Origin: an uncultured Candidatus Saccharibacteria bacterium
Lineage (GTDB): Bacteria > Patescibacteriota > Minisyncoccia > Minisyncoccales > Staskawiczbacteraceae
NCBI GenBank assembly: GCA_964599285.1
Contig: CAZREI010000002.1
Location: 9,955-73,954, forward strand
Direction of reading: 5' to 3'
DNA length: 64,000 bases
Below the pieces are notes generated by a model. It made no database searches and was not told where the DNA came from. It saw only the letters and a program-made list of their open reading frames with translations. A program made the position numbers and the translations under genes. Of this stretch, positions 1-54,010 are shown piece by piece (position 1 is the first letter of the stretch; each line of letters opens with the position of its first letter).

Positions 1-84
1 AATAGCGAATGGTGTACGAATTTACGAATGTGCGACGACGTCGTTATTCGAAAATTCGCAAGTAATTCGTTATTCGCTGATAGG
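1..84. repeat. family A hairpin repeat (cgaataacgaatta / taattcgttattcg arms)
   Basis: Other copies at 640-722 and 3437-3522. Confidence 0.8.
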
Positions 85-624
85 CTATCTTGTTTTAAGT
101 TTCCGCAACGCTTCCATCGTCGCCCGCGCGTTGTTTAATTTATTTTTTGATCCGGACAAAATTTTTGATGAAACGTTTTTAATTCCAGCTAAATCGCAAA
201 TGGTTCGGACCGCGCCGCCGGCAACCAAGCCTCGACCCTTTTTCTGGGGTTTGAGCAAAATAACCGCCGGGCCGAACTTAGCTTCTACCTGATGCGGAAT
301 GGTTTCATTGACAATGACCACGTTAATCATATTTTTTTTGGCCCGAGCCGTTGCTTTTTCAACCGCTTGGGATACGTCGCGACCCTTGTCAATTCCAATG
401 CCAATCTTGCTTTTTTTGTCGCCGGCAATGACCACTGCCCGAAAACTCATCCGCTTGCCTCCGCCGGTTACGCGCGTTACGCGGGCCAAATCCAAAAGCT
501 TGGAGTCTATACCATCATTAGCTTCCTGCCTGCGCCCGCCAAAGCCCCGTCGCAAAGGCCGAAAACCATCGTTGGTTCTTGCCACATTTTTAGCTGGAAT
601 AGGTTGTTTTGTATCGTCTGCCAT
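85..624 (-). CDS. rpsE: 30S ribosomal protein S5
   Basis: GGGKRMSFRAVVIAGD...IGIGIDKGRDVSQAVEKA...KNMINV matches uS5. First ATG (MADDTK) chosen because the ORF-track start lies inside a repeat. Confidence 0.9.
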   Translation of the reverse strand: MADDTKQPIPAKNVARTNDGFRPLRRGFGGRRQEANDGIDSKLLDLARVTRVTGGGKRMSFRAVVIAGDKKSKIGIGIDKGRDVSQAVEKATARAKKNMINVVIVNETIPHQVEAKFGPAVILLKPQKKGRGLVAGGAVRTICDLAGIKNVSSKILSGSKNKLNNARATMEALRKLKTR

Positions 625-722
625 TAATAATATCAACGAATAACGAATTACGTACGAATTTACGAATGTGCAACGACGTCGTTATTCGAAAATTCGCAAG
701 TAATTCGTTATTCGATGATGAA

Positions 723-1067
723 TTAAAACTTTAACCCGCCTTCCCTCGCCCCATCGGCCACCGCTTTTATCCTTCCATGAAAAACGTTACCTCCGCGGTC
801 AAACACAGCCTTTTCAATTTTTTTCTCAAGAGCTAATTTTGCTATCAATTTTCCAATCTCCATAGCGTGACTGGTTTTGTTTCCCTTAGATTTTAATTTC
901 AAATCGCTAGCCTGGACCAAAACCTTGGCATTATCGTCATCAATTAATTGGGCGTAAATATGCTGACTGGATCTGAAAACACAAAGCCGCGGCTTGTCTT
1001 TGGTGCCGCTGATTCTGGTTCTTATCTTGGTGTGGATTCTTTGTCGTTTTAGTTGCTTTCTTAACAT
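723..1067 (-). CDS. rplR: 50S ribosomal protein L18
   Basis: RxRxRIxGTxxRPRLxVFRSxxHIYAQLID pattern, plus position in spc operon. Confidence 0.9.
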   Translation of the reverse strand: MLRKQLKRQRIHTKIRTRISGTKDKPRLCVFRSSQHIYAQLIDDDNAKVLVQASDLKLKSKGNKTSHAMEIGKLIAKLALEKKIEKAVFDRGGNVFHGRIKAVADGAREGGLKF

Positions 1068-1074
1068 ATGTTTG

Positions 1075-1180
1075 AATCTTGAATTTTGTATCTAGTATCT
1101 TGAATTGAATGTTGAATTTAGAATTTAACGTCCGTGTTTTTATTCCAGCTTCAAGATACAAAATTCCAGATTCTATTTTT
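1075..1180. repeat. family G repeat (cttgaatcttgaat ... ccagcttcaagatacaa)
   Basis: Copies at 6215-6340 and 22570-22690. Confidence 0.8.
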
Positions 1181-1721
1181 TTGTGGCCACCACTTTCTTT
1201 CCTTCCTTCCTTCTAATCCTCTCGCCCTGATATTTAATTCCTTTGCCTTTATAGGGTTCGGCTTTTTTGGTGGCTCTTATTTGCGCGGAAATTTCACCCA
1301 CTACTTCTTTATTATTTCCAGAAACCGTAATCACGTTTTTTTCTACCAAAAAGGTAATGCCCTCTGGTTTTTTTATTTTTACGGGATTTACAAATCCCAA
1401 ATTCATCACCAGTTCATCTCCTTGCACATTAGCCTTAAAACCAACTCCTTCAATTTCTAATTTTTTTTCAAAGCCCTTGCTGACGCCTTCCACCATATTA
1501 AAAATCAATGCTCGATACAATCCCCAAAGTCCGCGCGCGCTTTTTATTAAATTCCGTTTTGGCGTAACAAAAATCTTGCCATCCTTGTTTTCAACCTGAA
1601 TGTCTTGATGGACGGTCATGTTCAATTCCCCTTTTGGTCCGGTTACTTTTACATCCTGACCGGTAATTTCAACTTTAACAGCTGAAGGAATTTCAATTAA
1701 TTTTTTACCAATTCGGCTCAT
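1173..1721 (-). CDS. rplF: 50S ribosomal protein L6
   Basis: MSRIGKKLIEIPSAVKV...; two-domain L6 pattern; operon order. Confidence 0.9.
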   Translation of the reverse strand: MSRIGKKLIEIPSAVKVEITGQDVKVTGPKGELNMTVHQDIQVENKDGKIFVTPKRNLIKSARGLWGLYRALIFNMVEGVSKGFEKKLEIEGVGFKANVQGDELVMNLGFVNPVKIKKPEGITFLVEKNVITVSGNNKEVVGEISAQIRATKKAEPYKGKGIKYQGERIRRKEGKKVVATKK

Positions 1722-1833
1722 GTTTTTGATTTATGATTTAAGATTTACGATTTATGAATTTGACTTTACGAATTCGTTATTATAGTATATTTATAGCCCT
1801 TTGGCAAGCCACTACACCTATTTCGAGGAATCC

Positions 1834-2040
1834 ATGAAGTGCGAAATCCAAAATCTTGATGATGGACTTATTGTGCTATACCCAGAAGATGACAAGGATC
1901 AGATTTTTCTGCAGAAATTAGCATCAACGGACCAGCTCGTAGGAATCTGGTGTCCAAATCATCCGGAAATTGAAAGAGCTGTAGCTCGCCTGGAATCTGT
2001 AAACCAAACTGCAGTTCTTCGATTTCCTTTCGCCGGCTAA
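1834..2040 (+). CDS. small hypothetical protein (68 aa), opposite strand inside spc operon
   Basis: ATG preceded by GAGGA SD. Upstream TTGACT-17-TAGTAT promoter (1752-1781); downstream hairpin plus T-run. Confidence 0.4.
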   Translation: MKCEIQNLDDGLIVLYPEDDKDQIFLQKLASTDQLVGIWCPNHPEIERAVARLESVNQTAVLRFPFAG

Positions 2041-2046
2041 TAGTCA

Positions 2047-2761: not shown

Positions 2762-2870
2762 TTTTAAGTATCAGCGATTTTTCAGCGTATTGTTCGGCGT
2801 GATTTCAGCGGACTAACACTATCGCTGAACTTAACGCTGATATCAACGCTGAATCTACGCGGAACATCGA
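2762..2870. repeat. family F repeat (aacgctgatatcaacgctgaat words)
   Basis: Copy at 9425-9480. Confidence 0.7.
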
Positions 2871-3431
2871 TTATTTTTCTCTGATTGGGAAGCCCATTAA
2901 TTTAAATAACTCAAGGCCTTCTTCCCTGCTTTTTGCGTTGGTAGAAACCGTTACCTCCAAACCAAAAATGGTTTTTTCTTTTTCAACCAGAATTTCCGGG
3001 AAAGAAATGTGCTCGCGAAATCCGATATTCAAATTTCCCCGCTTGTCTATTCCATGAGCATCCAAACCTTTAAAGTCGCGCGATCGGGGCAGTGACAAAT
3101 AAATAAACCGTTCCAAAAAATCCCACATTTTGCCTTTTCGCAGCGTCACCATGGCCGCGATATGCAAGCCCTCCCGCAAACTAAACCCTGCAATAGATTT
3201 TTTTGAAGCAACCAGCCGTGGTGCCTGTCCTGCGATTAAAGCCAAATCATGGCTTATGGCATTGTTGATTTTTTCGCGCTCGCCAGAAGTTTTACTGACC
3301 ACCTGCTTGCCAAAAGAACTGTTGATGGTAACTTTGGTAATGCGCGGCACGGCCATGCTATTTTTGTAACCAAACTTAGCCATCATAGCTGGAATTACCT
3401 GTTTTTGATATTTTTGCTGTAACTTCTCCAT
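2871..3431 (-). CDS. rplE: 50S ribosomal protein L5
   Basis: uL5 pattern; start moved to internal MEKLQQKYQ (ATG at 3431) because the upstream ORF-track part is repeat-derived. Confidence 0.85.
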   Translation of the reverse strand: MEKLQQKYQKQVIPAMMAKFGYKNSMAVPRITKVTINSSFGKQVVSKTSGEREKINNAISHDLALIAGQAPRLVASKKSIAGFSLREGLHIAAMVTLRKGKMWDFLERFIYLSLPRSRDFKGLDAHGIDKRGNLNIGFREHISFPEILVEKEKTIFGLEVTVSTNAKSREEGLELFKLMGFPIREK

Positions 3432-3524
3432 AACATTATCATCGAATAACGAATTACTTTCGAATTTGCGAATCGTGTCGGACGTTATTCGTAAATTCGT
3501 ACACAATTCGTTATTCGTTGATAT

Positions 3525-3830: not shown

Positions 3831-3833
3831 GAT

Positions 3834-3917
3834 TTCGCTACGAAATACGAATCAAGTACGAATATACCAATAAGATTTAATTCGTATATTCGTAAAAAAT
3901 TCGTATTTCGTAGCCCA
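3834..3917. repeat. family C hairpin repeat (gctacgaaatacgaat ... attcgtatttcgtagc)
   Basis: Copies at 4316-4400, 36007-36090, 36325-36410. Confidence 0.85.
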
Positions 3918-3942
3918 ATTTACTTTTACCTTTATGGCTGCA

Positions 3943-4910: not shown

Positions 4911-4911
4911 A

Positions 4912-5015
4912 ATAATGGCAATGCAAATCTACAAATCTTATGCTAATCTACAAAATTGCTAATGTGATATTCGCATATTCGCGGCATTCGCATAAGATTC
5001 GCAGATTTGCATTAC
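4912..5015. repeat. family H repeat (gcaatgcaaatctacaaat ... atttgtagatttgcattgcc)
   Basis: Copy at 34862-34975. Confidence 0.8.
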
Positions 5016-5428
5016 CCTTCTCTCTTAATGAATTTGGTCTTGATAGGCAGTTTGATGCCGGCGCCTTTGAACGCTTCGCGCGCCACCTCTTCTTTCAATC
5101 CGTCAATTTCAAAAATAATCCTTCCTGGTTTTATGGGATACACATAGTGATGCACGCCTCCCTTGCCACCACCCAACGGCACTTCTTCTCCCTTTGAAGT
5201 AACTGGTTTGTCCGGAAAAATTCTCACCCATAGTTTTCCGCCCTTTTTCATGTATCGGATAATGTGCCTTCGCGCCGCTTCCAACTGGCGAGCGGTAATC
5301 CACTTGGTGCCCATGGCTTTTAACCCAAAACTGCCGAAATTCAATTCCGTAGCGCGCGTCTCCACTCCTCGGCTGACACCTCGGTGCCACTTGCGGTGCT
5401 TTACTTTTTTGGGCATTAATAAACTCAT
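5012..5428 (-). CDS. rplP: 50S ribosomal protein L16
   Basis: MPKKVKHRKWHRG...; uL16. Confidence 0.9.
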   Translation of the reverse strand: MSLLMPKKVKHRKWHRGVSRGVETRATELNFGSFGLKAMGTKWITARQLEAARRHIIRYMKKGGKLWVRIFPDKPVTSKGEEVPLGGGKGGVHHYVYPIKPGRIIFEIDGLKEEVAREAFKGAGIKLPIKTKFIKREG

Positions 5429-5429
5429 A

Positions 5430-5540
5430 TTCTTTGATATATATTCGCCTCTGGCGAATGATACTTAGAGATATTTGCGCGCCTTGCGCGCGATATTTTT
5501 CTAGTATCTATTAATATCCGTAATATCCATTAATATCTAT
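5430..5540. repeat. family D repeat (gatatttgcgcgccttgcgcgcgatattt...atatccgtaatatc)
   Basis: Near-identical copy at 17910-18020; partial at 4655-4700. Confidence 0.8.
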
Positions 5541-6214: not shown

Positions 6215-6327
6215 GTTTTTGAATCTTGAATCTCGTATCTTGTATCTTGAACGGAATAATGAATTTGGAATACCGCGCATTCACTATTCCGTATTCGATT
6301 CCAGCTTCTAGATACAAGATTCTAGAT

Positions 6328-6756
6328 TCACGTTATTTTTTGATACTCTTTTTTCCTTACTTTTACTTCCTTTTTAATTTCCGGTTTCATTGCTTTTTTA
6401 ACTTTCCCTGCTGGCTTTTCCGCTTTACCATCAGTTAATATTAGGGTAATATGGGAAGTTCTTTTCATAATCGGGTATGCTCTGCCCCGCGACATCGGGT
6501 GGGACCTCTTTAATTTTGGCCCTTCGTCAACAAACACTTGGGAAATTTTAAGGTTGCTTTCTTCCAAATGCAAATCATGCACCGCCGATGCCACCGCGCT
6601 GTTTAACAGCCTTAGTACGGGAAGTGCGCCTCGCTTTACGGTAAATTCCAAAAGGGCGCGGGCTTGAGCCACGTCTTTGTTGCGAATCAAATCAACCACT
6701 TCTTTTGACTTTCGTGGCGCTGTCCGTAAATTTCGTAATACTACTTTAACCTCCAT
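6328..6756 (-). CDS. rplV: 50S ribosomal protein L22
   Basis: MEVKVVLRNLRTAPRKSKEVVDLIRNKDV... uL22; internal ATG chosen, upstream part lies in repeat. Confidence 0.85.
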   Translation of the reverse strand: MEVKVVLRNLRTAPRKSKEVVDLIRNKDVAQARALLEFTVKRGALPVLRLLNSAVASAVHDLHLEESNLKISQVFVDEGPKLKRSHPMSRGRAYPIMKRTSHITLILTDGKAEKPAGKVKKAMKPEIKKEVKVRKKEYQKIT

Positions 6757-6836
6757 TGCTACATTTAACATGTGACAATTGACATTTGACCGCCGGTTCG
6801 TTTTTTGGTCAATTGTCAAATGTCAATGGTCAATTG

Positions 6837-7172
6837 TTACTTCTCTGGTTTTTTGACGTCCACTGCTACTTTTGCCGCCTGCGACGCTTCAGCCTGCTGT
6901 TCTATTCCTTTTTGCATCTTGCCGCCGTGTCTTGAAAATTTGGTTGACGCGGAAAATTCCCCTAGCTTGTGCCCTACCATATCTTCAGAAACATACACCG
7001 GCACAAACTCCTTGCCATTGTGGACTCCAAAAGTAACCCCAACCATTTCCGGTGAAATCGTGGAAGAACGCGCCCAGGTTTTTATGATAGTCTTTTCGTC
7101 TTTGCGCAGCCTCAACACTTTTTCCAGCAATCGCTGATCTACGAAAGGACCTTTTCTTAAGCTTCTCGACAT
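6837..7172 (-). CDS. rpsS: 30S ribosomal protein S19 with C-terminal extension
   Basis: [12 protein letters not shown]...GHKLGEF; extra about 25 aa tail. Confidence 0.9.
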
Positions 7173-7179
7173 AATTTTT

Positions 7180-7307
7180 GGAGTAATCACGAATATACAA
7201 ATACGTTCAAATATACAAATGTTACAAATATACGAATACGAGCGACGTGATTTGTATATTAGTAAAATTTGTATATTATTTTAGATTTGTATATTCGTGA
7301 TTACTCC
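7180..7307. repeat. family B hairpin element (ggagtaatcacgaatatacaaat ... atttgtatattcgtgattactcc)
   Basis: Perfect about 23-bp terminal inverted repeats. Other copies at 8150-8289, 10696-10809, 18432-18582, 25112-25314, 27386-27501, 49287-49461. Confidence 0.9.
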
Positions 7308-8143: not shown

Positions 8144-8288
8144 AATTTTGGAGTAATCACGAATACACGAATATACGAATACTCTCAAATATACAAATCT
8201 TACAAATATACGAATGTGCGCGAATGTCGTAATTTGTATATTGGTAAAATTTGTATATTATTTTAGATTTGTATATTCGTGATTACTC

Positions 8289-8723
8289 CTATATGATCTC
8301 TATTTTTTGCCCTTCCTTGACTGTAACTACGGCTTTGGTAAATCCCTTTCTAAACCCTTCAGTTTTTCCCAGCCTTCTTTTTTTGTGCGGAATTGTTATT
8401 ATGTTGACGCCCAGCACGTCTACTCCGTAAATTCCTTCCACTGATTTTTTTATTTCTAATTTATTGGAGTTGCGGTAAACCTTAAATGTATATTTATTCT
8501 TTTCTGCCAAATTGGTTGCCTTTTCAGAAATATGCGGTTCTTTAATTACACTATAAGAAAACCCCTTTGCTTTCTTTGGTCCTGTGGTCCGAACCACGGG
8601 ACTGGGTTTTTGCGGTTCGGGTTTTGCTGATTTTGTAGTCAAAACTTTTTCCGATTTTTTATCAGCTGGTTTTTTCGCCTTTTCTACTTCCTTTTTTCTT
8701 TTTAAAAAATCAAATAAACTCAT
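8289..8723 (-). CDS. rplW: 50S ribosomal protein L23 with Lys/Pro-rich N-terminal extension
   Basis: C-terminal ISEKATNLAEKNKYTFKV uL23 core; start uncertain. Confidence 0.75.
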   Translation of the reverse strand: MSLFDFLKRKKEVEKAKKPADKKSEKVLTTKSAKPEPQKPSPVVRTTGPKKAKGFSYSVIKEPHISEKATNLAEKNKYTFKVYRNSNKLEIKKSVEGIYGVDVLGVNIITIPHKKRRLGKTEGFRKGFTKAVVTVKEGQKIEII

Positions 8724-9608: not shown

Positions 9609-9830
9609 GTGATCGAAAATGCACTTTATGTTTGGGATCTCTTCCTTGATAGCGAAAAACATGAAGCATCAAGGCGGAGTATCATTGAAAAGCTTGATAG
9701 TCTGTCTATAGTTGGTTTCCGTGTTACTAGTTTCCAACACTTTCCAGACGAGAAGATCATCACCTTTCATCTCCAAAGAGAAAAAAAAGAAACTTCACCA
9801 CCTGCTCCACCGGCAACCATTGCCGACTGA
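9609..9830 (+). CDS. small hypothetical protein (73 aa), opposite strand between rplD and rplC
   Basis: GTG/ATG after AAGGAG SD. TTGACA-17-TATACT promoter at about 9522-9551; terminator 9840-9879. Confidence 0.4.
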   Translation: MIENALYVWDLFLDSEKHEASRRSIIEKLDSLSIVGFRVTSFQHFPDEKIITFHLQREKKETSPPAPPATIAD

Positions 9831-9879: not shown

Positions 9880-10056
9880 GCTTAAATTTTCAAATTACTC
9901 TGGATTGCCACGTCGCTTCGCTCCTCGCAATGACGACGTTTGGTTTCCGCGTTTTTCCGCGAGACGCTGGGCGTCCCTGCCCCGCTCAGCGTGGGCGTAA
10001 ATTTCCCCGGCCTCGACTCGCTGTCAAGGCGAGGCGGGCGCGTTATTCCGCGATTG

Positions 10057-10689: not shown

Positions 10690-10952
10690 GAATTTGGAGT
10701 AATCACGAATATACAAATACGATCAAATATACAAATATACTAATACGAACGAGTGTTACGATTTGTATATTCGTATATTATTTTAGATTCGTATATTCGT
10801 GATTACTCCTTTTATAAACAAATACCGGGCACTTCGCCCGGCCAATTCAAAACTATTGAATTTTTTGCGGACTTATCTCTTGATAATCAAGAGTAGTATC
10901 TCGTCTTTTTCAACGATTAATCAGTGTACTATATCTTAATAGAAATATCAAC

Positions 10953-11046
10953 CCCGTCGTTGCTTCGCCTCCTTCAAAACCCTCGGTTTTGAATAATTTC
11001 CTACACGGATGGGACACCAAGTGTCCCCTCCTACCCACCCCTCGAG
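10953..11046 (-). ncRNA. conserved structured RNA motif, copy 1 (S10-L3 intercistronic)
   Basis: Blocks YGTGTAGGAA / TTCAAAACCGAGGGTTTTGAA / GGnnCGAAG are shared with 58557-58670. The intervening hairpin differs but remains a hairpin. Confidence 0.4.
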
Positions 11047-11049
11047 TAG

Positions 11050-11430
11050 CTATATCTTAATAGATATATCTACTCCCGATGGTAAATTCAAGTCTCTTAG
11101 CGCTTCAATGATCTGTTCGTTCGGGCTTAGAATATCAATGATTCTTTTGTGGATTCTCATTTCAAATTGCTCGCGGGCGTTCTTGTGAACAAAGGTTGAT
11201 CGGTTGACCGTATACTTTAAAATTTCCGTTGGCAGTGGCACCGGTCCCACCACTTCAACGCCATGCCGATTGGCAATGTCAATAATCTGGCGCACCGAAT
11301 TGTCTATGATTTTGTGGTCATAGGCTTTCAGCTTGATGCGCAGTTTAGGCAAAGAAGCCACCGTTTGAACTGGCGCTTCTTTGGTTTCAACTTTTTTCCT
11401 GGTAACAGTTTTTTTTGCGACTACCATTAT
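11050..11430 (-). CDS. rpsJ: 30S ribosomal protein S10 with N-terminal extension
   Basis: [29 protein letters not shown] uS10 core. Confidence 0.85.
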
Positions 11431-11494
11431 GTTGGATTTTCTGCGTGATTCCGCGTAAATTTCCGCGTTTTTCCGCGCCAAAAATCATCAAATA

Positions 11495-12688: not shown

Positions 12689-12861
12689 TTGTATTTAGGT
12701 TATAGCTTTTAGTTTATAGGTTATAGAATTTCTATAAGCTATAAGCTAGAACCTGTAAGCTAATTAGATTTTATTTATACTAATAATACTATTACACTAC
12801 ATTAAATAAGTCAATGATTTTAACATAAAAAGACGCGACAGGGCGCCTCTTATCAAAAACG

Positions 12862-13450: not shown

Positions 13451-13810
13451 ATGACTCAGGAAAATCGTAGGGTTATTAGAGATACGGTTTTCGGCCTTCT
13501 GCGACAACGCCTAGAAAAGCGAGAAAAGATCATTGCGAAATCATGGGAATATTTGAAAGTGAAAGGTATTCCCAGAGAAGAGTTTGAAGAATGGTGGCGA
13601 GAAAGGTTTCCCTCTTGCCCAAAATGCGGATTCGGTTGCAGTTCAACTTTTATGCATTGTCCTGAATGCGGTACCCGATTGCCCCTTCCCAAAACCATTG
13701 AACAGCTCGACGACAGAGAAGAGGAAATGGTTGGATACAGCCACATTGCTCACCACCTCCAAAAAGCAGACGGTTTAAACTTCTGCGTAGATTGTGGCAA
13801 AAAACTTTGA
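13451..13810 (+). CDS. hypothetical zinc-ribbon protein (119 aa), opposite strand between tuf and fusA
   Basis: CPKCG...CPECG and CVDCG; GGGAGA SD; terminator 13822-13852. Confidence 0.45.
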   Translation: MTQENRRVIRDTVFGLLRQRLEKREKIIAKSWEYLKVKGIPREEFEEWWRERFPSCPKCGFGCSSTFMHCPECGTRLPLPKTIEQLDDREEEMVGYSHIAHHLQKADGLNFCVDCGKKL

Positions 13811-13852: not shown

Positions 13853-13944
13853 TGTAAGACTCTGGATTGCCACGTCTCCGACTACGGTCGGGACTCGCAA
13901 TGACGACGTTATTCGTAATTCGATAAAATTCGTAATTCGTAGGA

Positions 13945-16088: not shown

Positions 16089-16307
16089 ATGTTTGAGTAT
16101 GCAGTTGTTCGTTTTGGTGCGTTCGAACCAGATGCAGCGGATGAGGTGGTGAAAACCGCGAACGCAAGGGCGCAAGATGGATGGCGCCTTGTATCTGTGT
16201 GCGCCGTCAAGCCCACCTCAACCTACTCATACGTCCTTCCGCAAGAGGGACAAGGTAGCACCGAAAAAGTACCCACAATCGCCGCTTTTTTCGAAAGGAA
16301 GAAGTAG
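16089..16307 (+). CDS. DUF4177-like small protein
   Basis: M.EY.VV....F......EELLNxxGxxGWxLVSV pattern; AGGAGG SD; higher GC than flanks. Confidence 0.5.
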   Translation: MFEYAVVRFGAFEPDAADEVVKTANARAQDGWRLVSVCAVKPTSTYSYVLPQEGQGSTEKVPTIAAFFERKK

Positions 16308-16323: not shown

Positions 16324-16356
16324 GGCGCCAACCCAAAAAGTTGGCGCATTTTTTTA
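16324..16356 (+). terminator. intrinsic terminator
   Basis: ggcgccaacccaaaaagttggcgc plus T7. Confidence 0.6.
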
Positions 16357-16614
16357 CCTGTAAATATCCTTCCGGTGACCAATTTCTACGAATACTGCTT
16401 CATCTTTACTTTCAAAACAATAAATAACTCTATACTCGCTTGTTAATCTTAAAGAATAAAATCCATTAAATTTTCCAGAAAGTTTTTTAACATGAAGGCG
16501 GGTGTCATGTTGGTCAGTTCTAAAAATATCTGTTTGCCGCAGGAGTAATTCTTTTATTTTCAGGGGCAAATTACTTGCATCTTTTAAAAAAGATTTTCTT
16601 AAAACAACTTTCAT
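16354..16614 (-). CDS. type II toxin, RelE/ParE family
   Basis: C-terminal YRVIYCFESKDEAVFVEIGHRKDIY matches RelE/ParE; 86 aa. Confidence 0.8.
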   Translation of the reverse strand: MKVVLRKSFLKDASNLPLKIKELLLRQTDIFRTDQHDTRLHVKKLSGKFNGFYSLRLTSEYRVIYCFESKDEAVFVEIGHRKDIYR

Positions 16615-16958
16615 TTTGAAATAAGCTTTAGGAAATCTCTTTTATTGGTATAAACAACCGACCCACGCCTATCTTTTGCATTCTTTAAAACCCTTTTTAC
16701 AAAATTGGGATTATACTCACCCTCACGGTCAACACCACCACTTAAACGATACTTTTTCTTAACCTGTCCCATTGAATAAGTCCGTCCTGTTTTAACATCT
16801 TCTTGGCCCAACCTGATTTGCTTTATGGCCCAATTACTTAAAGCTTCTTTTTTACCTACTTTTTTGGTTTTTCTAGCGCCAGCTAAAACCAACCTTTTAA
16901 CAAAAGCTAAATCTTTTTCCAGTCTATTAATTTTTTTCTCTAAAAGTCTGTTGGTCAT
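16611..16958 (-). CDS. putative cognate antitoxin (unassigned family)
   Basis: Immediately upstream of toxin with 4-bp ATGA overlap; inferred from genomic position. Confidence 0.45.
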   Translation of the reverse strand: MTNRLLEKKINRLEKDLAFVKRLVLAGARKTKKVGKKEALSNWAIKQIRLGQEDVKTGRTYSMGQVKKKYRLSGGVDREGEYNPNFVKRVLKNAKDRRGSVVYTNKRDFLKLISK

Positions 16959-17060: not shown

Positions 17061-17122
17061 AATATATGATTGGGACGTGTAATACTTCTCTCGCCTTTTG
17101 CTCTTACAAGAAGAGAAATCTT

Positions 17123-17380
17123 ATGGCGGAACGAATCTTTCCGAAAGGCGTGCGGACAAGGGGTAACGTAATCAAATTTCGAACGGAGGATGGAAAGGAA
17201 ATTTCCGAGTACGTCGAATTCCGAAAGAAGGAAGATGACGAAACGCTCATTGTCTTTTTAAGGGACACAAATCGTTATCTCACCCACAATCCCTTGAAGG
17301 ACGGAGACAAGTGGACATATCATTACGCACATCACGAGGTTCACAGAGAACTAGGTAGGGTGACAATCGTCACCGATTAG
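17123..17380 (+). CDS. small hypothetical protein (85 aa) opposite strand between fusA and rpsG
   Basis: MAERIFPKG...; own terminator 17402-17432. Confidence 0.4.
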   Translation: MAERIFPKGVRTRGNVIKFRTEDGKEISEYVEFRKKEDDETLIVFLRDTNRYLTHNPLKDGDKWTYHYAHHEVHRELGRVTIVTD

Positions 17381-32981: not shown

Positions 32982-32982
32982 A

Positions 32983-36086: not shown

Positions 36087-36332
<246 letters not shown>

Positions 36333-36423: not shown

Positions 36424-37155
36424 TTAATGACTTTCAATGGCGGTATGTAGGGAAATTGAAACCAGGGTGAGCATGGCAAAGACAAACGACTGGATTAATC
36501 CTACAAAAATTTCCAGAAATAAAAATGGCAGCGGGACTACATACGGAACCAAGAAAAACACAATGGTCAGCAATACTTCACCGGCAAACACATTGCCAAA
36601 CAACCGAAACGACAGCGAAATAATTTTAGCAAATTCTGAAACCAGTTCCAAAATTCCAATGAAAAATTTTATGGGATTTTGGAAATTGATAAATTTGCTA
36701 ATGTGCGGCAAAACGCCCACCGCCATCATCCCCAACAAGTTAGTGACAATCACGGAAATGACCGCAAAGGCCAGGGTGAAATTTAAATCAGCGGCCGGAG
36801 ACCTAAACAGTGAAACTTCCCTGCCTCCGTTTTGGATGTACAGCGACCCGACGCCGGGCAAAATTCCCGACAGATTGCAAATCATGATGAAAATAAAAAT
36901 GGTGGCGATGAGCGGAAAATATTGCTCGGCTTTTTTTATGGATCCCAACATCCCTTCCATTAGGCCCAAGAGCCACTCAAAGCCCATTTCCACCACCGAC
37001 TGGACCGCGCCCGGAACGATTTGGATTTTGCGATAGAAAAGAGCCGCGCCGGCCATCAGGATCAGTGAAACTACGAACGTGGAAAACAAGCTATTAGTGA
37101 AAGCAAAATGGCCAATTGAAAATATTTCCTGCGCTTTTAGAGAAATTTCCTCCAT
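36424..37155 (-). CDS. atpB: ATP synthase subunit a
   Basis: Polytopic; conserved Arg region LSFRLFGN. Confidence 0.9.
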   Translation of the reverse strand: MEEISLKAQEIFSIGHFAFTNSLFSTFVVSLILMAGAALFYRKIQIVPGAVQSVVEMGFEWLLGLMEGMLGSIKKAEQYFPLIATIFIFIMICNLSGILPGVGSLYIQNGGREVSLFRSPAADLNFTLAFAVISVIVTNLLGMMAVGVLPHISKFINFQNPIKFFIGILELVSEFAKIISLSFRLFGNVFAGEVLLTIVFFLVPYVVPLPFLFLEIFVGLIQSFVFAMLTLVSISLHTAIESH

Positions 37156-38522: not shown

Positions 38523-38660
38523 GAGTAGTTTTTGGTTTTAGGTTCCGGCCGCGCCGCCCGTTGGGCGGCGCGGCCTATTAGTTAAAGTTCTTTAGTTTTT
38601 AGTTTTAAAACTGGAAACTTTTTCAAACTTCAACTTTAAACTATCAACTAATAACTGCGT
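38520..38660. repeat. family O repeat (GC palindrome ggccgcgccgcccgttgggcggcgcggcc plus agtttt/aaactt words)
   Basis: Copies at 51050-51180 and 53815-53925. Confidence 0.8.
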
Positions 38661-38670
38661 TACTATAATC

Positions 38671-40404
38671 TTACCCTATCGGCAGCTCAATGTAAAAAGT
38701 GGATCCCTGGTTTTCGCCCTTGGACTCTGCCCAAATCTTGCCGTTATGAGCTTTGATAATTTGCGTTGCCAGATACAAACCGATGCCGCTGCCAGAAGCA
38801 ACATCCTTGGCCTTTTGATCCCGCTCAAACACGCGGTCAAACAAAGTTTTTAGGCTTTCGGGTGTCATGCCAATACCCGTATCGGCAATGGTAATTAAAA
38901 TGGCGTTTTTGGAATTTTCGTTTTTTGGATTTTCATTGGAAATTGGTAATTGGGAATTGGAATTTATTTTCACCGTCACGCTTCCCTTCGGCGTGTACTT
39001 TATAGAATTATCAATGACATTGAAAATGGCTGCTTTTAATTTTTCTCGGTCGGCGGTGATGCTTACGTCCTTGGCCATTTTTTCCAGCTTCAACACAACC
39101 CCTTTTGATTCGGCCTTAAACGAAAGTTCGTTTACAATTTCATCCAACATTGGTGAAATCGCAATGCCAGGCTTTAATGTTACCGGATTTTTGCCCAACT
39201 GAAACTGCGTCACATCCAAAAAATTGTTGACTTTACGAATCATGTTTTGCGCCACGGCTTGCATTTTTTTGATGACCTCCAGCGTTTTTTTGTTCTGCTT
39301 GCCAAAGGTACCATTAAGCAACAGGTCGGAGTAGCCCATGATGGAAGTCAGCGGCGTTCGCAAATCGTGCTGGGTATTTTGCACAAACTGGTTTTTGATT
39401 TTATCCAACTTTTCCAGTTCTTCATTGGCCTTTTTTTCAACCAGGTAGGCCCGGTCAATATTTTCCTTGGCCCGCTTTTCCGTAACATAAGCGCGCCGAA
39501 CATCCTCAGCCATAGCGGCAATCTTCTCCCGCTGCTGCACCTCCCTCAAAACCCCGCGAATCAATAAAATGCCAAAGATAAGTACTGACAAAAAAACCGA
39601 AGACCGGTAGAAGATGACAACCAAAGAATCCGCCTGAGTGATTTCTAAAAAAGTAACCACCGAAAGTGCGAAGACCAAAGCCGCAGTTCCAATAACTCTG
39701 ATATTGAATAATTTATGCCTAATGATTGCGTAGGAAGTAAATAAAATAAATGGAAAAACAAATAAAGAACCGAATGGTGCAAATCTGGGATTACCAAACA
39801 CTGTTGGTAATATTAAATTAAATAAAATGTGCAAAACAAAAGTAATAGTTACACCTGTAAGCAATAATCTTAACTCACTTTTTTCCGTCGTATTAGTTGC
39901 TTTGATTAATTTTCTACACAATAAATAAATTGCATAGACTATTAAAAAGATAACCGTAATACCAAAAATAATAACACCAAAACCATTGCTAACTTTTTCT
40001 ATTCCTCCACTTTCTGAAAACTGGGTAACGCGCTCAAAAACAAATGGCGTCAAAGTTAGTAAGGTACTTAAAACTACCGCAGGAAGAACAAGTAAATAAT
40101 AAACTTTTGGAAATGAGATTTTTTCTTGAGGGAAAATATAAAAAAGCCTATAAAGAAAAAAGCAATACAAAATTGCAAAAAAAACATGGGCTCTTAAAAC
40201 CCAAATGGCTATATTTGATGGTAATGGTTGAAATATAAGATAATTTAAAATACCCCAAGGGATAGTTGAAATAACGAATGTGAAAAACGCACGATTTACC
40301 GCGCTCTTACTATTACTCAAAATAACAGTAAAACCCAAAACTCCATTTGCTGCTAATGCAATGCCAACAAATAATAGATCAAAATTTTGAAAATAATCAG
40401 TCAT
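38671..40404 (-). CDS. membrane sensor histidine kinase carrying a repeat-derived in-frame insert
   Basis: HisKA H-box QHDLRTPLTSI; HATPase G-boxes. Low-complexity SNENPKNENSKN encoded by an intergenic-type repeat at 38920-38962. Confidence 0.85.
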   Translation of the reverse strand: MTDYFQNFDLLFVGIALAANGVLGFTVILSNSKSAVNRAFFTFVISTIPWGILNYLIFQPLPSNIAIWVLRAHVFFAILYCFFLYRLFYIFPQEKISFPKVYYLLVLPAVVLSTLLTLTPFVFERVTQFSESGGIEKVSNGFGVIIFGITVIFLIVYAIYLLCRKLIKATNTTEKSELRLLLTGVTITFVLHILFNLILPTVFGNPRFAPFGSLFVFPFILFTSYAIIRHKLFNIRVIGTAALVFALSVVTFLEITQADSLVVIFYRSSVFLSVLIFGILLIRGVLREVQQREKIAAMAEDVRRAYVTEKRAKENIDRAYLVEKKANEELEKLDKIKNQFVQNTQHDLRTPLTSIMGYSDLLLNGTFGKQNKKTLEVIKKMQAVAQNMIRKVNNFLDVTQFQLGKNPVTLKPGIAISPMLDEIVNELSFKAESKGVVLKLEKMAKDVSITADREKLKAAIFNVIDNSIKYTPKGSVTVKINSNSQLPISNENPKNENSKNAILITIADTGIGMTPESLKTLFDRVFERDQKAKDVASGSGIGLYLATQIIKAHNGKIWAESKGENQGSTFYIELPIG

Positions 40405-49289: not shown

Positions 49290-49454
49290 AGTTTTTGGAG
49301 TAATCACGAATATACCAATACGATCAAATATACAAATGTTACAAATATACGAATGTGCTGGATTGCCACGTCGCTTCGCTCCTCGCAATGACGGACAGAA
49401 CGGATTTGTATATTGGTAAAATTTGTATATTGTTCTAAATTTGTATATTCGTGA

Positions 49455-50117
49455 TTACTCCCTAATTAGTTGGTATTCTTTGTTAAAAATCTTTTTGGAA
49501 ATAATAAAAATACTATAGGTGATAAAGGGCGCGGCAAAGACATCTATGGAATAATGCATGTGGGCCAAAATCATGGTGACGCCAAAAATGCCGGCGGCGA
49601 CAAAAAAGAAGTTTCTCCAAAGGGCTTCTTTCCAAAAAATCAGGCCAAATAAAAATGGCGCGCCCACGTGTCCCGAAAAGAAAAAATCATTTTTGGCATT
49701 GTATAAAAAATCGTAAATACTGAAACCAACGCCCTGGGCGTTTAAGGTGATTTGATGAAGGCTGACTCCCAAGTGCGTCAAGCTGATAAAAAAGGACCTG
49801 ACAATAATAAAAAATGCCAAAGATTTAATAGAAAAAAGCAGGTAGCGGGGCTGGATGGCGCAGAGCATCATAACGACAAAAGACAGTATCAGCGCGCCTT
49901 GCACAATGAAAAAATCTAAATTAATGGTGGGCAGGTTGTCCAATAATAAATCCCCCACGTAGGTTACCTGCGCGTGATGGTCAACATAATTGTAGGCAAA
50001 ATGCTGCACGAGCAAAGCGGCCGCCAATAGCGCCACGGCACCCAAGAACAACAAAAACGTATCCTTTTTCCAAAAATGCGTATGGCGCAAATATATTTTT
50101 TCTATGTAGCTATTCAT
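49455..50117 (-). CDS. PAP2-family membrane phosphatase
   Basis: SGH and HMHYSIDV motifs. Confidence 0.7.
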   Translation of the reverse strand: MNSYIEKIYLRHTHFWKKDTFLLFLGAVALLAAALLVQHFAYNYVDHHAQVTYVGDLLLDNLPTINLDFFIVQGALILSFVVMMLCAIQPRYLLFSIKSLAFFIIVRSFFISLTHLGVSLHQITLNAQGVGFSIYDFLYNAKNDFFFSGHVGAPFLFGLIFWKEALWRNFFFVAAGIFGVTMILAHMHYSIDVFAAPFITYSIFIISKKIFNKEYQLIRE

Positions 50118-51046: not shown

Positions 51047-51179
51047 GTAGTTTTTAGTTTTAGGTTCCGGCCGCGTCGCCCGCGGGCGACACGGCCTGTT
51101 AGTTTAGGTTTTTTTGGTTGTTAGTTTTAAACTGGAAACTTTCTAAACTTAAACTTTAAACTTAAAACTGATAACTATT

Positions 51180-51947
51180 TTAGATGAGACTCATCTGATT
51201 TTTCAATGACTCATTACTGATCAGTCTCCGATAAGCGCAATGCTGGCAATCCGGATTTGACGGTGGAATATTGTCCGAATCCAAACACTTTTTAATATTC
51301 ATAATGGCTTGGTCAACCCACGCGCTGTTTCCCTGATACGGAATAATAGACGTTTCAAATTCCAATTTGCCGCCAAACCCGGGCCGATTGCGCGACGCGT
51401 TGGCAAACAAGAAATAACCGACATCAGAAACAGAAAATCCAAGCCTTGCAAAAATCCACTGATACACTTCCATTTGCCTTTTATACCCTATTTTGTACTG
51501 GCTGTCCAACGATATGGGATAATCCGTGCTGGTGGATTTGTAATCCACAATGTGTAGCGCCCCAGTTTTTTGATCCGCCCAAATATCGTCCACAATGCCG
51601 CAGATGTTCAAATTGGTTTCTTTGTGCAACACGCAGGCTCCTAATTTTTTATTGTTGTCATCGCGCCAGATAGCAAAATCGGGATGGTAAAACGGAATAG
51701 CATCAATGCCATATTTTTGCATCAGCGGGTGCGACTTTTTTTGCTCGCGCAGCAGGTCAAACTCATTTTTCAAAAGCGCGTCAACGGCGCTGTTGAGCGA
51801 CCAGCCGGGCATATCGGGCCGCACAATCCCCAACCGCCGGTCCAACCAAAAGCACTGCGGGCATTCCAAAAAAAAGTCAATTTTTGAGCGGCTGACGTTG
51901 AATGGCTCTTTGGATGTCGGATTATAAAGATTGGTTCTGCGCTTTTG
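51180..51947 (-). CDS. PD-(D/E)xK nuclease, Cas4/RecB-like, with Cys cluster
   Basis: DYKST motif; CPQC...CQHC. Confidence 0.55.
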   Translation of the reverse strand, partial: QKRRTNLYNPTSKEPFNVSRSKIDFFLECPQCFWLDRRLGIVRPDMPGWSLNSAVDALLKNEFDLLREQKKSHPLMQKYGIDAIPFYHPDFAIWRDDNNKKLGACVLHKETNLNICGIVDDIWADQKTGALHIVDYKSTSTDYPISLDSQYKIGYKRQMEVYQWIFARLGFSVSDVGYFLFANASRNRPGFGGKLEFETSIIPYQGNSAWVDQAIMNIKKCLDSDNIPPSNPDCQHCAYRRLISNESLKNQMSLI

Positions 51948-51959
51948 CATAAATATGGC

Positions 51960-52095
51960 GACGCTAATTCCCAAGTCCCCAATTACCAATTCCCAATGAA
52001 ATGCTAAAAATCTTAATGCCCAAACCTGTTTTGGAATTTAGGATTTAGGATTTTCATTGGGAATTGGATATTGGGAATTGGAAATTAAGACCAGC
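51960..52095. repeat. family P repeat (gggaattgg/ccaattccc words)
   Basis: Related 53465-53530 and intragenic 38920-38962. Confidence 0.7.
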
Positions 52096-52098
52096 AGG

Positions 52099-52575
52099 TT
52101 ACGCGCTTCCGATGAGCATTCCCGCGATGGCGACCAGCACTCCTCCCACCACTACCTGAGCGACCGACCACAAAAAATTCATTTTAAAGTAGCGGGTGCG
52201 GATGTAGGCGATGACCAGAAGTTCGACTCCCACCACTAAGTATGCCACAGAAAGAGCTCGCCACACGTTGGGCAAAAAAAAGGGAACGGTGTGTAAAAAT
52301 CCGCCAATGAAAGTGGCTAGGCCCGTCACTAATCCCCGACGCACGGGGTGTCCCCTACCAGTGTGGACTCCCGTATCGGAAAGCGCTTCGGCAAACCCCA
52401 TACTGATGGCTGCTCCGATGGCCGCTGATAATCCAATCAGCAAGGTAACGTGGGAAGATTTGGTTGCAAAAGCGGCGGCAAACAGCGGGGCCAAGGTTGA
52501 TACCGATCCGTCCATCAGTCCCAGCAAAGCCGGCTGGATATATTGGAGCACAAAAGCTTTTTCTTTTTGATCCAT
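52099..52575 (-). CDS. VIT1/CCC1-family metal transporter
   Basis: LMDGSVSTLAP...GFAEALSDTG. Confidence 0.6.
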   Translation of the reverse strand: MDQKEKAFVLQYIQPALLGLMDGSVSTLAPLFAAAFATKSSHVTLLIGLSAAIGAAISMGFAEALSDTGVHTGRGHPVRRGLVTGLATFIGGFLHTVPFFLPNVWRALSVAYLVVGVELLVIAYIRTRYFKMNFLWSVAQVVVGGVLVAIAGMLIGSA

Positions 52576-52741
52576 TTTACTATTGTAGCATATTCTTTTT
52601 CAATGAAAAAGAAAGCAAAACAAAAATAGCAAAGTGGCGGCGCCCGAAGGCGCCGCCACTTTTTTCACATCCGCGTTAATCCGCGTTTCGCCAGCTGGCG
52701 AATATCCGCGTAAATCCGCGAATTTTACGAAGTAAAATTGA

Positions 52742-52993
52742 TTAGCAGCACTTGCACATCCCTGCCTTATTGGCCCACTTCATAAAACCTCCAATGATAA
52801 CCAAAATTGGCCAAACAATTGCCGAAAATCCGGCGGTCACAACGCCCAAAGCTTGCAACAAAAAGGTCAAACCAAACAAAATGATCAGCACCGGTACTAC
52901 TTTATGATGAGGGCACTTGCACATATTTTTCATTCCCCCACCCATATTTTGCATATTTTCCATATTTTTTAAATGATAAATGATAATTAACAA
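52742..52993 (-). CDS. small Cys-rich membrane protein
   Basis: CKCPHH...CKCC flanking two TM. Confidence 0.35.
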   Translation of the reverse strand: MLIIIYHLKNMENMQNMGGGMKNMCKCPHHKVVPVLIILFGLTFLLQALGVVTAGFSAIVWPILVIIGGFMKWANKAGMCKCC

Positions 52994-53031
52994 TCTATTA
53001 ATTATCGACCTTTACCTGATCATACCATAGA

Positions 53032-53463
53032 TTAAGACCAAAGTGCCAGCACTGATCCCATAATCAGCAAGGCAAGCAAGTAATACGCGTTCATCAAAAA
53101 CCAAAGTTTCCACGATTTTCCTTCCCAAAGCACCGACCCCAGCGTCACCGGAGCAATAAATCCCAGCCAACTCCAAAACCCCACCATCAGGCCTGCGCCA
53201 ATGCCCGCCGCCTGCAAATAAGCACTGGCAAACACCAAGCTGTGCGCCAACACATATCCCATGACCAGCGACCCGATAAAGGCCAGCAAATATCCTTTCC
53301 ACATGCCGCCCTTGGCTTTGGCAGCGTCCATGTGTTCTTTGGTCATGCCCATCAGCGACATCCAAAGTTTGCCAAATAAGGGCCCGTACCAAACAAAACC
53401 CAGCACCATATTGGCCAGAGCCGCCACCAAAATGGCCCAGTAATTTACGACAACTTGCACCAT
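53032..53463 (-). CDS. DUF1761 membrane protein
   Basis: YGPLFGKLW pattern. Confidence 0.55.
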   Translation of the reverse strand: MVQVVVNYWAILVAALANMVLGFVWYGPLFGKLWMSLMGMTKEHMDAAKAKGGMWKGYLLAFIGSLVMGYVLAHSLVFASAYLQAAGIGAGLMVGFWSWLGFIAPVTLGSVLWEGKSWKLWFLMNAYYLLALLIMGSVLALWS

Positions 53464-53583
53464 ATTTTTAAAAATTCCAAATTACAAGCACCAAATTACA
53501 ATAGCGAATTGGAATTGGGATGCTGCAGTTTGAAAGATTTATATTTTTTCATTATACCACGCTAATCTTGACATGCCTATTGC

Positions 53584-53612
53584 AAGCATTGAAAAAATGG
53601 CTTACTATAAAA
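53584..53612 (+). promoter_or_regulatory. promoter TTGCAA-17-TACTAT upstream of tRNA
   Basis: Spacing consensus. Confidence 0.3.
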
Positions 53613-53646
53613 CTGCGAATAAGGGAAATGGTTCATTAAAAATACA

Positions 53647-54010
53647 TTCCGGTGTAGCTCAGCGGTAGAGCGATTCCCTGTCAACAAGGCAGCGCTCAGA
53701 AGAAACTCTGAGATGAACTTTTCGGGATATCGGTGAACCCTTCGACATTAATTGTCATGGCGATACCGAGGGAACCTAAATAATTTATTTGGGGCTCCGT
53801 AGAGACTAGATACCGAAATGCCTAATGTAGTTATTAGTTAGAAGTTTAAAGTTATAGTTATTAGTTCTTGGTTTAAAACTGAAAACTAAAAAACTTAAAC
53901 TTGGAACTTAAAACCAAAAACTGCCACGGCAAAGATATAGTCCACGCCTTGTGGAAACACAAGAATAAAGTGTAAGGAATGGGTCGTAGGTTCGAATCCT
54001 ACCACCGGAG
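53647..54010 (+). tRNA. tRNA (probably Asn-GUU) split by an about 292-nt group I intron in the anticodon loop
   Basis: 5' half tccggtg-ta-gctcagcggtagagc-g-attcc-ctgt. 3' half taa-ggaat-gggtc-gtagg-ttcgaat-cctac-caccgga-g. Intron has R-like gtagagactaga and exact S element aagatatagtcc, ends in G after exon U, and GCAG can pair CUGU for P1. Confidence 0.65.
53815..53925. repeat. family O repeat copy lodged inside the tRNA intron
   Basis: agttattagtt...aaactgaaaactaaaaaacttaaactt, similar to 38520-38660 and 51050-51180. Confidence 0.6.

Follow-up and report, generated by a model that had tools for sequence, protein, structure and literature searches.

Hairpin elements at the operon junctions of a Staskawiczbacteria genome share arms with GxxExxY nuclease cassettes

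We analyzed a 64,000-nucleotide stretch of contig CAZREI010000002.1 (the window) from a groundwater bacterium that homologues of its ribosomal protein L2 place in Candidatus Staskawiczbacteria (Parcubacteria / Patescibacteria), focusing on ~45 AT-rich inverted-repeat elements at positions 1-53930 and on the small GxxExxY nuclease genes that matching arms enclose in related genomes. Pfam searches of the concatenated open reading frames (ORFs) of the window identify the following genes, nearly all on the minus strand.

S10 (11050-11427) to S5 (85-624): S10-spc ribosomal-protein operon
S12, S7, EF-G and EF-Tu: str genes
29723-37155: ATP-synthase operon
38671-40404: histidine kinase gene
NDK, SOD, TGT and assorted others: further genes of the window

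The elements, counted from hairpin scans together with half or decayed copies from a listing of the gaps, belong to at least 15 word families, which agrees with an earlier interpretation made from the sequence alone (the sequence-only reading) that had put the number of copies in 54 kb at over 40 and the number of families at thirteen or more; every short word it named is present in the window. A repeat listing of the window contains 94 inverted pairs and 57 direct-repeat families. A gapless hairpin scan recovers 32 strong non-overlapping hairpins compared with 0-1 in 10 dinucleotide shuffles, and a gapped dynamic-programming stem search (stem DP), used in place of an RNALfold-style scan in which the elements were not separable from background, recovers 49 hairpins at a score of at least 13 compared with 0-5 in local shuffles, and ~33 at a score of at least 18. 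About 10 of these 49 are ordinary GC-rich terminators. The 17 listed ribosomal-protein (r-protein) junctions, each 64-145 nt in length, all form hairpins, with a single hairpin domain in 16 cases, and the ATP-synthase junctions a to c, c to b, b to delta, delta to alpha and beta to epsilon are filled, with a nested module (described below) and a half element in the gamma to beta spacer. Some copies have a single arm, and 39-49 kb of the window is mostly free of elements. At 60-200 nt the elements are short, non-coding, multi-copy and dispersed, as are miniature transposable elements with inverted repeats (MITEs). They are listed here; lines without a further remark rest on the stem DP.

1-84: family A (CGAATAACGAAT words) hairpin, truncated by the window start, downstream of the S5 stop; 93% identical to 639-719
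624-726: family A hairpin, L18 to S5; 37/43 pairs, sense RNA folding free energy (dG) -40.8
1068-1173: CTTGAAT-family hairpin, L6 to L18; orthologous copy in relative L001
1722-1790: GATTTATGATTT word array next to the L6 start, one-armed or decayed; weak fold
2483-2575: TGACAATTGAC-family hairpin, S14 to S8; orthologous copy in L001
2761-2874: AACGCTGA-family hairpin, L5 to S14; 31/39 pairs
3432-3524: family A hairpin, L24 to L5; repeat listing and stem DP
3831-3925, minus strand: family B (GCTACGAAATACGAAT) hairpin, L14 to L24
4312-4405, minus strand: family B hairpin, S17 to L14
4640-4721: ATATCCG/GATATT word element, weak hairpin, L29 to S17; RNA fold
4911-5019: ATGCAAATCTAC-family hairpin, L16 to L29
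5429-5536: ATATCCGTAAT-family element, S3 to L16; 97% identical to 17930-18020
6215-6330: CTTGAAT-family hairpin, L22 to S3, source of a false S3 N-terminus
6757-6839: TGACAATTGAC-family hairpin, S19 to L22
7173-7312, minus strand: family C (GGAGTAATCACGAATATAC...GTATATTCGTGATTACTCC) hairpin, L2 to S19; 53/60 pairs
8144-8297, minus strand: family C hairpin, L23 to L2
8724-8787: CACATAAC/GTTCCATG-family hairpin, L4 to L23; family also in L001 and L004
9457-9530: CGCTGA word remnant and GC-rich hairpin, upstream of L4
9890-10056: composite of the nested module CTGGATTGCCACG..CTCGCAATGACG and TTCCGCG words; 98% identical to 31859-31921
10690-10815, minus strand: family C hairpin next to the L3 start, source of the false MYIRDYSK N-terminus
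11428-11494: CGCGGAA (TTCCGCG family) single arm, EF-Tu to S10; junction comparison
12689-12766: TTATAGG-family hairpin next to the EF-Tu start
13866-13944: nested module and one ATTCGTAATTCG arm, directly downstream of the EF-G stop; gap listing
17907-18014: ATATCCGTAAT-family element, S12 to S7; direct repeat with the 5429-5536 copy
18426-18581, minus strand: family C hairpin next to the S12 start; loop holds the nested module
19331-19466: AATTAGAAT-family hairpin between the M50 peptidase and L28 genes
20751-20834: TGACAATTGAC-family hairpin next to the NDK start
21120-21215: TTCCGCG-family hairpin downstream of the SWIB gene
22571-22691: CTTGAAT-family hairpin between the HD-domain and SpoU methylase genes; 43/53 pairs
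25104-25318, plus strand: inverted-polarity family C hairpin upstream of SOD; loop holds an 87-nt nested module
27386-27503, minus strand: family C hairpin next to the TGT start
28826-28925: element of the TACTAAT/ATTAGTA family, upstream of the DUF378 gene; in L154 this word family surrounds a GxxExxY ORF
29960-30115: AATTAGAAT-family hairpin, ATP synthase beta to epsilon
31859-31946: nested module and TTCCGCG arm, downstream of the ATP synthase gamma stop; direct repeats
34862-34970: ATGCAAATCTAC-family hairpin, delta to alpha; G:T asymmetry opposite to that of the 4911 copy
35995-36090, plus strand: family B hairpin of inverted polarity, c to b
36316-36420, minus strand: family B hairpin, a to c
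38576-38670: AGTTT/AAACT word element, downstream of the kinase stop towards the response-regulator start; adjoins a GC-rich terminator (38547-38575)
38908-38966, minus strand: GGGAATTGG-family single arm, in frame in the histidine-kinase HATPase_c domain; 81% identical to 52029-52087
49290-49465, minus strand: family C hairpin whose loop holds the nested module; arm 96% identical to 7168-7237
51084-51176: AAACTT-family element; direct repeats
51965-52087: GGGAATTGG-family hairpin; 48/58 pairs
53829-53922, plus strand: AAACTT-family hairpin lengthening a peripheral stem of a probable group I intron; stem DP and Rfam

In each element a 5′ arm of three to six words and the 3′ arm complementary to it enclose a short centre of variable sequence, with an arm periodicity of 7-12 nt, an arm GC content of 0.10-0.41 and a stem of 25-57 bp. 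Described earlier as perfect, the terminal inverted repeats are in fact 72-93% complementary, which still gives the elements the inverted ends of a MITE. Across unrelated families and genomes the centres are enriched in ACGT (11.7-fold), AACG (7.6-fold) and GACG (6.4-fold). RNA folds of 64 filled junctions from five genomes, taken at dG < -15 kcal/mol, place the stem start at a median of 0 nt past the stop codon and the stem end at a median of 6 nt before the AUG, and most of these junctions form a single hairpin domain. No U tract follows the stem at element junctions, and no Shine-Dalgarno sequence precedes the start codons of the r-protein genes. We rejected a reading of the elements as intrinsic terminators on the basis of the low arm GC content and of the short spacer and start codon that follow the stem; true terminators of the window, for example at 20856-20887 and 28544-28583, look unlike the elements. 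The N-termini beginning MYIRDYSK and MRGIPNSLFRSRYKIRDSRF are, as had been proposed, translated repeat sequence, and a practical consequence of the elements is that gene callers stretch N-termini into repeats.

The nested module CTGGATTGCCACG...CTCGCAATGACG has a variable middle, translates as a spurious 'RGAKRRGNP' peptide and is found six times, in loops or at arm ends of hairpins from different families. Another class of long hairpin lacks word structure; this class, 160-185 nt with up to 65/76 pairs and a core of GCTATAATTTTT, a small hairpin and AAAAATTCTATCAAATTT, looks like a separate MITE-like family.

9899-9938, 13866-13905, 18480-18520, 25175-25260, 31859-31898, 49357-49396: nested-module copies
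27974-28156 and 35350-35511 in the window, 17958-18140 in L004, 6988-7109 in L001: wordless long hairpins

Two copies lie outside intergenic spacers, both anticipated by the sequence-only reading. In the histidine kinase, one GGGAATTGG-family arm at 38908-38966 is read in frame and adds ~15 amino acids between conserved segments of HATPase_c, its DNA being 81% identical to an arm of the hairpin at 51965-52087; in this one case, with one arm, the host protein stays readable, as with in-gene palindromes of the Rickettsia type. At the second site, the hairpin at 53829-53922 lies within a full-length match to the Rfam group I intron family Intron_gpI (RF00028) at 53666-53964 on the plus strand, which scores 43.4 bits against a gathering score of 50 with a local E of ~1e-9. 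On either side of this probable intron stand the halves of a tRNA, which we read as tRNA-Asn(GUU) interrupted at position 35/36, and the split tRNA gene (53650-54012, plus strand) is missed by ARAGORN because the intron interrupts its anticodon loop. Genes for tRNA-Asn(GUU) with an intron at position 35/36 are a recently described class in Patescibacteria (PMC13011429).

We retrieved the syntenic loci of relatives through their L2 homologues. In L001 and L004, whose L2 proteins are 91% and 90% identical to that of the window, r-protein junctions measure ~80-145 nt, as in the window; in L087 and L088 (88% and 87% identical) most r-protein junctions measure 1-19 nt, so the filling is clade-specific. 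Hairpin density is 8 per 10 kb in the window compared with mostly 0-1 per 10 kb in a control set of 80 r-protein loci from distant taxa of other phyla, drawn from an L2 scan. These two comparisons support the expectation that compact operons normally lack such spacers, and the elements are not a conserved feature of the operons. The word-hairpin style recurs in a few other Patescibacteria (L019, L083, L011). In empty r-protein junctions of the relatives the spacer often ends ..ACC ATG, which together with the lack of Shine-Dalgarno sites suggests coupled or Shine-Dalgarno-independent initiation.

Comparison of the same junction among the three filled genomes usually reveals three different families. 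At the L23 to L2 junction, for example, the window has family C, L001 a TGTTATAAC family and L004 family A, and orthologous copies occur at a few junctions (L6 to L18 and S14 to S8). Between the window and L001 or L004, four-fold degenerate sites are 45% identical, which amounts to saturation, while the arms of family B are essentially invariant over eight copies in the window and L001 and those of family C nearly invariant between the window and L004. Loops differ between copies, and some are inverted. Among copies with an internal asymmetry, the polarity of 7/8 in family B and ~8/10 in family C, by inspection, matches that of a co-oriented ORF; family C alone numbers 91 copies (75 distinct sequences) in the fetched contigs. 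The pattern is one of sequence families held intact by a sequence requirement, whose individual copies are rapidly gained and lost, and not one of junction-specific RNA structures; arm constancy together with loop variation fits mobile families in active turnover. An origin of the words as restriction sites or uptake sequences was dropped because each genome holds many unrelated words.

The arms of several families are also the inverted ends of a gene cassette, which supports the common generating mechanism that the sequence-only reading had suggested. Scanning metagenomes for the family C terminus yielded 120 contigs, in which the termini occur not only in the usual 80-200 nt hairpins but also 464-538 bp apart, enclosing a single ORF of ~127 amino acids. 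This larger arrangement, a 5′ arm of two to four words, the ORF and a complementary 3′ arm, spans ~470-500 bp in a full cassette and, with family C termini, is present in 13 distinct sequences. The enclosed ORF is a GxxExxY protein, with TIGR04256 scores of 90-102 bits (cutoff 35) and a match to PF13366 (PDDEXK_3), and the PD-(D/E)XK residues D71, E81 and K83 (E81-x-K83) are invariant among the cassette ORFs; no solved structure matched GxxExxY by sequence. PF13366 is a family of unknown function with multiple horizontal transfers, included in a survey of PD-(D/E)XK nucleases (PMC3424549). For one family C cassette with an ORF, the protein encoded on its contig is attributed by NCBI to a Staskawiczbacteria genome. 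Other GxxExxY paralogues in the 120 contigs were located without regard to their flanks, and searches for protein homologues supplied the Nealsonbacteria, Wolfebacteria, Sungbacteria, Falkowbacteria, L235 and Giovannonibacteria contexts.

L154, between S7 and EF-G: GxxExxY paralogue with TACTAAT arms
L161: GxxExxY paralogue with ACGAATTACGAAT arms
L193: GxxExxY paralogue with family A arms
L209, between L10 and L12, Nealsonbacteria: GxxExxY gene with AAGCGAAT arms
Wolfebacteria and Sungbacteria: GxxExxY genes with a family-C-like arm pair
Falkowbacteria: GxxExxY gene with family-B-like arms
L235 1501-3378, junctions of a PrgI/TraC-like operon: three successive GxxExxY cassettes with TACGGAT and B-like arms
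Complete Giovannonibacteria genome, between S14 and S8: one-armed GxxExxY copy

Flanking inverted repeats score at least 18 at 11 of 16 distinct GxxExxY ORFs compared with 0.4% of 4146 control ORFs, and three of the five ORFs below this score have arms by eye. Different word families pair with diverged GxxExxY paralogues. Family-B-like and TACGGAT arms enclose GxxExxY ORFs in L233 and L235, and the TACGGAT cassette family resembles the ATATCCGTAAT words of the window. In every case the start and stop codons of the ORF abut the arms precisely. The arms keep a fixed polarity with respect to the ORF, and most ORF-less copies share this polarity relative to their host genes. The cassettes lie between cistrons and point the same way as the adjacent genes (L10/L12, S7/EF-G, S14/S8). 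The ends are common to ORF-less elements and ORF-containing cassettes, and the cassette ORF is not a recognised transposase. Outside the Candidate Phyla Radiation (CPR) we examined six GxxExxY genes on plasmid or secondary-replicon records and found word-built inverted flanks at two, in Bacteroides finegoldii (CAGAGGAC words) and Bernardetia (ACACAGAGA words), both Bacteroidota; a Treponema gene has a 16-nt inverted repeat, a Fusobacteria record has direct repeats instead, and the Persicobacter and Gemmatirosa records showed no such flanks.

Two further observations concern cassette contigs. In L215, L216 and L217 (~2879-3066), which encode an identical GxxExxY protein, a 74-nt unit comprising the 3′ end of the ORF and the 3′ arm is present in zero, one or two extra copies, a copy-number difference that is live tandem amplification at the cassette end. 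In L233 a 23S_rRNA_IVP (PF05635) ORF at 2843-3292 is also intercistronic, which hints that other small selfish ORFs use the same niche.

We consider it probable, though well short of certain, that the hairpins are ORF-less, MITE- or REPIN-like derivatives of selfish GxxExxY-nuclease cassettes (REPINs being hairpin-forming doublets of repetitive extragenic palindromic sequences, REPs). Four observations carry this proposal: the shared arms, the co-divergence of arms and paralogues, the clade-specific expansion and the turnover of copies. Cassettes and ORF-less forms lodge in operons whose genes point the same way, in the space from one stop codon to the following start codon, and each family would persist because its arms must be recognised. 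The cognate nuclease would probably act on an extruded hairpin or cruciform, host repair or recombination after the nuclease cuts could complete the move and spread the element, and slippage within stems could lengthen the word arrays. In the transcript, a stem reaching from ~0 nt past the stop to ~6 nt before the AUG would bring the codons back to the 1-19 nt distance found at empty junctions, and downstream translation could still start; because the folded stem would keep stop and start close, insertions even in essential operons may be harmless. Such a folded RNA is a plausible, model-based reason why the elements are tolerated. A bolder formulation, to which we give somewhat less than even credence, is that GxxExxY proteins are the enzymes of a distinct class of mobile elements: ~0.5-kb cassettes whose arms might serve both as nuclease substrate and as an RNA zip that keeps stop and start adjacent, whose ORF-less forms would saturate the core translation and ATP-synthase junctions of some Patescibacteria, and whose design would extend to Bacteroidota.

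Several results weigh against deriving the hairpins from GxxExxY cassettes. Neither the window nor the 20-kb r-protein loci of L001 and L004 contain a GxxExxY ORF, so mobilisation in trans has to be assumed for the window genome. The CTTGAAT, TGACAATTGAC, TTCCGCG, AATTAGAAT, GGGAATTGG and AAACTT families yielded no link to an ORF. Among the short elements a single ORF remnant is recognisable, a 13-nt match with an E of 0.002 (L154 3424), the other short BLAST matches of loops to the ORF being almost all arm words. We found no consistent target-site duplication or target motif in the flanks of families B and C or in comparisons of filled with empty junctions, where the flanks are A-rich. Identical GxxExxY proteins always occupy a single genomic context, so that no recent movement of a full cassette is visible, and copies with identical arms yet differing loops would be odd for very recent copies. 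To our knowledge, a PD-(D/E)XK nuclease is by itself incapable of strand transfer.

The same data bear on an account in which the hairpins came first and served as targets, with GxxExxY genes inserting into their loops like free-standing homing-endonuclease genes while the hairpins spread by other means. The loops are indeed variable and host nested insertions such as the CTGGATTGCC...CGCAATGACG module, the centres rich in ACGT (11.7-fold), AACG and GACG could be a common target across families, ORF remnants are nearly absent from short copies, and ORF-less arms often have four to six words compared with two to three in ORF-flanking arms. Yet arms diverge together with the ORF, as in C-clade ORFs with AAGCGAAT or ATACGAAT arms and in the 35-40% identical paralogues with other words, and the exact abutment of ORF and arms and the fixed polarity between them are hard to reconcile with loop insertion; this account, which also leaves the spread of the hairpins themselves without explanation, we hold to be unlikely. 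Movement by a Y1 (HUH) transposase or REP-associated tyrosine transposase (RAYT) encoded elsewhere, with the hairpins as classical REPINs or IS200/IS605-type elements mobilised as single-stranded DNA, agrees with their conserved inverted ends, variable spacer, extragenic position, clustering and nesting (PMC3116915), with the lack of a target-site duplication, the orientation bias and the family B ends GCTAC...GTAGC. In L165 an IS200-type TnpA gene is located at a distance of 355 bp from a family C hairpin, but hairpins do not flank this gene (it is separated from the hairpin by a secG-like ORF) and it is the sole match in 2.3 Mb of fetched DNA, which holds 31 GxxExxY ORFs enclosed by arms. 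A RAYT-type gene flanked by hairpins was not found in this DNA by tblastn with IS608 TnpA and E. coli RayT queries, a search of limited sensitivity. Over 15 families would moreover demand many RAYTs in a ~1 Mb genome, and we regard this transposase-based origin as very improbable.

The sequence-only reading had also raised an RNA-level role for the elements, as processing sites, attenuators or translational hairpins, and the tests we ran gave this no support. Selection by the host for RNase III-type processing sites, mRNA stabilisers or per-cistron translation devices would account for the near-saturation of junctions in highly expressed operons of three genomes, the tight placement of the stem ~0 nt after the stop and ~6 nt before the AUG, the lack of Shine-Dalgarno sites at r-protein genes, the orientation bias and an arm conservation far above neutral expectation. 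Over 44 elements, however, there is no folding advantage of the sense strand; sense and antisense fold about equally, the summed dG difference being +80.8 kcal/mol in favour of the antisense strand. Compensatory pairs number zero in family B and one in family C, the arms of both families varying so little that there is no covariation to score, and no element reaches an Rfam gathering score, e-value mode giving only spurious plant miRNA-precursor hairpins. Relatives with 87-88% L2 identity live with 1-19 nt junctions, any of more than 15 unrelated sequences can fill a junction, copies also lie in the kinase ORF, the intron and non-operon spacers, and conservation extends to the sequence of the arms beyond mere pairing; host-selected RNA function is accordingly an improbable origin in our estimate. 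Almost nothing is left of the possibility that the repeats are an assembly or chimera artefact. Its one foothold is Logan contig L003, in which ATP synthase gamma is fused directly to L23, probably a mis-join (or a rearrangement) via shared hairpin repeats, and assemblers can mis-join contigs at such repeats. The same families recur at defined junctions in independent assemblies of many samples from four sources (NCBI, ENA, JGI and Logan), with flanking frames intact.

We place the elements in a kind already known, non-autonomous palindromes paired with a cognate enzyme gene, to which the nuclease link adds. REPINs are short, extragenic, clustered hairpins with two conserved inverted ends and a less conserved spacer, and each REPIN sequence family goes with one small enzyme gene of its own, the repeat-flanked RAYT (PMC3116915). 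The elements of the window resemble REPINs in their conserved inverted doublet, variable spacer, clustering and nesting, and in the repeat-flanked enzyme gene of relatives. They differ in that the enzyme is a PD-(D/E)XK (GxxExxY) nuclease and not an HUH/Y1 transposase, in arms that are arrays of 7-12 nt words where a REP is one palindrome of 20-25 nt, and in being AT-rich and placed inside operons exactly between a stop and the next start. Homing-endonuclease genes provide a second parallel, I-Ssp6803I being a PD-(D/E)XK homing endonuclease included in the survey cited above (PMC3424549). The cassette likewise carries a small, selfish nuclease gene with the restriction-enzyme fold and occupies a place where the damage is least; homing-endonuclease genes copy themselves into one cognate site, whereas cassettes stand at many unrelated junctions, with inverted arms and many ORF-less hairpins.

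Other bacterial repeats share single features. The Correia elements of Neisseria and the enterobacterial repetitive intergenic consensus (ERIC) sequences are non-autonomous elements of ~100-150 bp whose inverted ends form long stem-loops in transcripts; their defined terminal inverted repeats are related to insertion-sequence transposases and they make target-site duplications (TA for Correia). The elements of the window are similarly inverted-ended and co-transcribed as stem-loops, but neither a duplication nor a transposase relative was found for them. Rickettsia palindromic elements (RPEs) are palindromic repeats of a reduced genome that can sit in frame in genes, as the kinase copy does, although here there is a single in-gene copy with one arm and most copies are intercistronic. 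Mycobacterial interspersed repetitive units (MIRUs) occupy operon spacers and preserve flanking translation like the elements of the window, but are direct tandem repeats with small overlapping ORFs, not hairpins, and lack an associated nuclease gene. In cyanobacteria, short tandemly repeated repetitive (STRR) sequences are intergenic arrays of 7-nt words and small dispersed repeats (SDRs) are very small hairpins that nest in other repeats; the elements of the window are also word-built and contain nested modules, and we know of no nuclease cassette linked to STRR or SDR sequences. In the full-text literature we found no account of such elements in CPR or Parcubacteria genomes and only incidental mention of GxxExxY, with a like outcome for the nested-module sequence and PF13366.

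The window has other features of its own. A gene for a PDDEXK_1 (RecB/Cas4-like) nuclease at 51180-51989 on the minus strand has word elements on both sides, each of a different family (51084-51176, 51965-52087), and is not related to GxxExxY. Small ORFs on the opposite, plus strand (1801-2040, 9609-9830, 13451-13810, ~16090-16300, 17066-17380 and 33067-33254) lie in the wider spacers of the r-protein, str and ATP operons; they have their own terminators and strong Shine-Dalgarno sites, and relatives have small ORFs at some matching positions. The S7 to EF-G and EF-G to EF-Tu spacers span ~1-1.7 kb and differ among relatives; between EF-G and S7 lies a possible toxin-antitoxin pair (16354-16958, minus strand), and the equivalent spacer in L004 encodes an 86-amino-acid ORF with a weak match to HigB-like toxins. 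In the S10 to L3 spacer (10816-11049) a stretch ..AGATACTACTCT..AAAAGTCCGCA..CCGGGC-GCCCGG.. is kept in the window, L001 and L004; it had no Rfam match and may be a structured leader or small RNA. The block at 58000-62000 has a GC content of 0.49-0.54 compared with ~0.41 and lacks hairpin elements; long ORFs overlap there on the two strands, and the block may be acquired DNA.

These findings point to a little-studied kind of selfish DNA tied to the GxxExxY nuclease gene, and give GxxExxY / PF13366, a family with thousands of annotated genes, a testable function. If the proposed mechanism of a nuclease with self-insulating arms is true, the elements could be a more novel class. The stop-hairpin-start geometry hints at a general route to neutral insertions in operons without Shine-Dalgarno sites, and Patescibacteria genomes of ~1 Mb that are deemed minimal can bear dense, fast-turning selfish hairpins in their most conserved operons.

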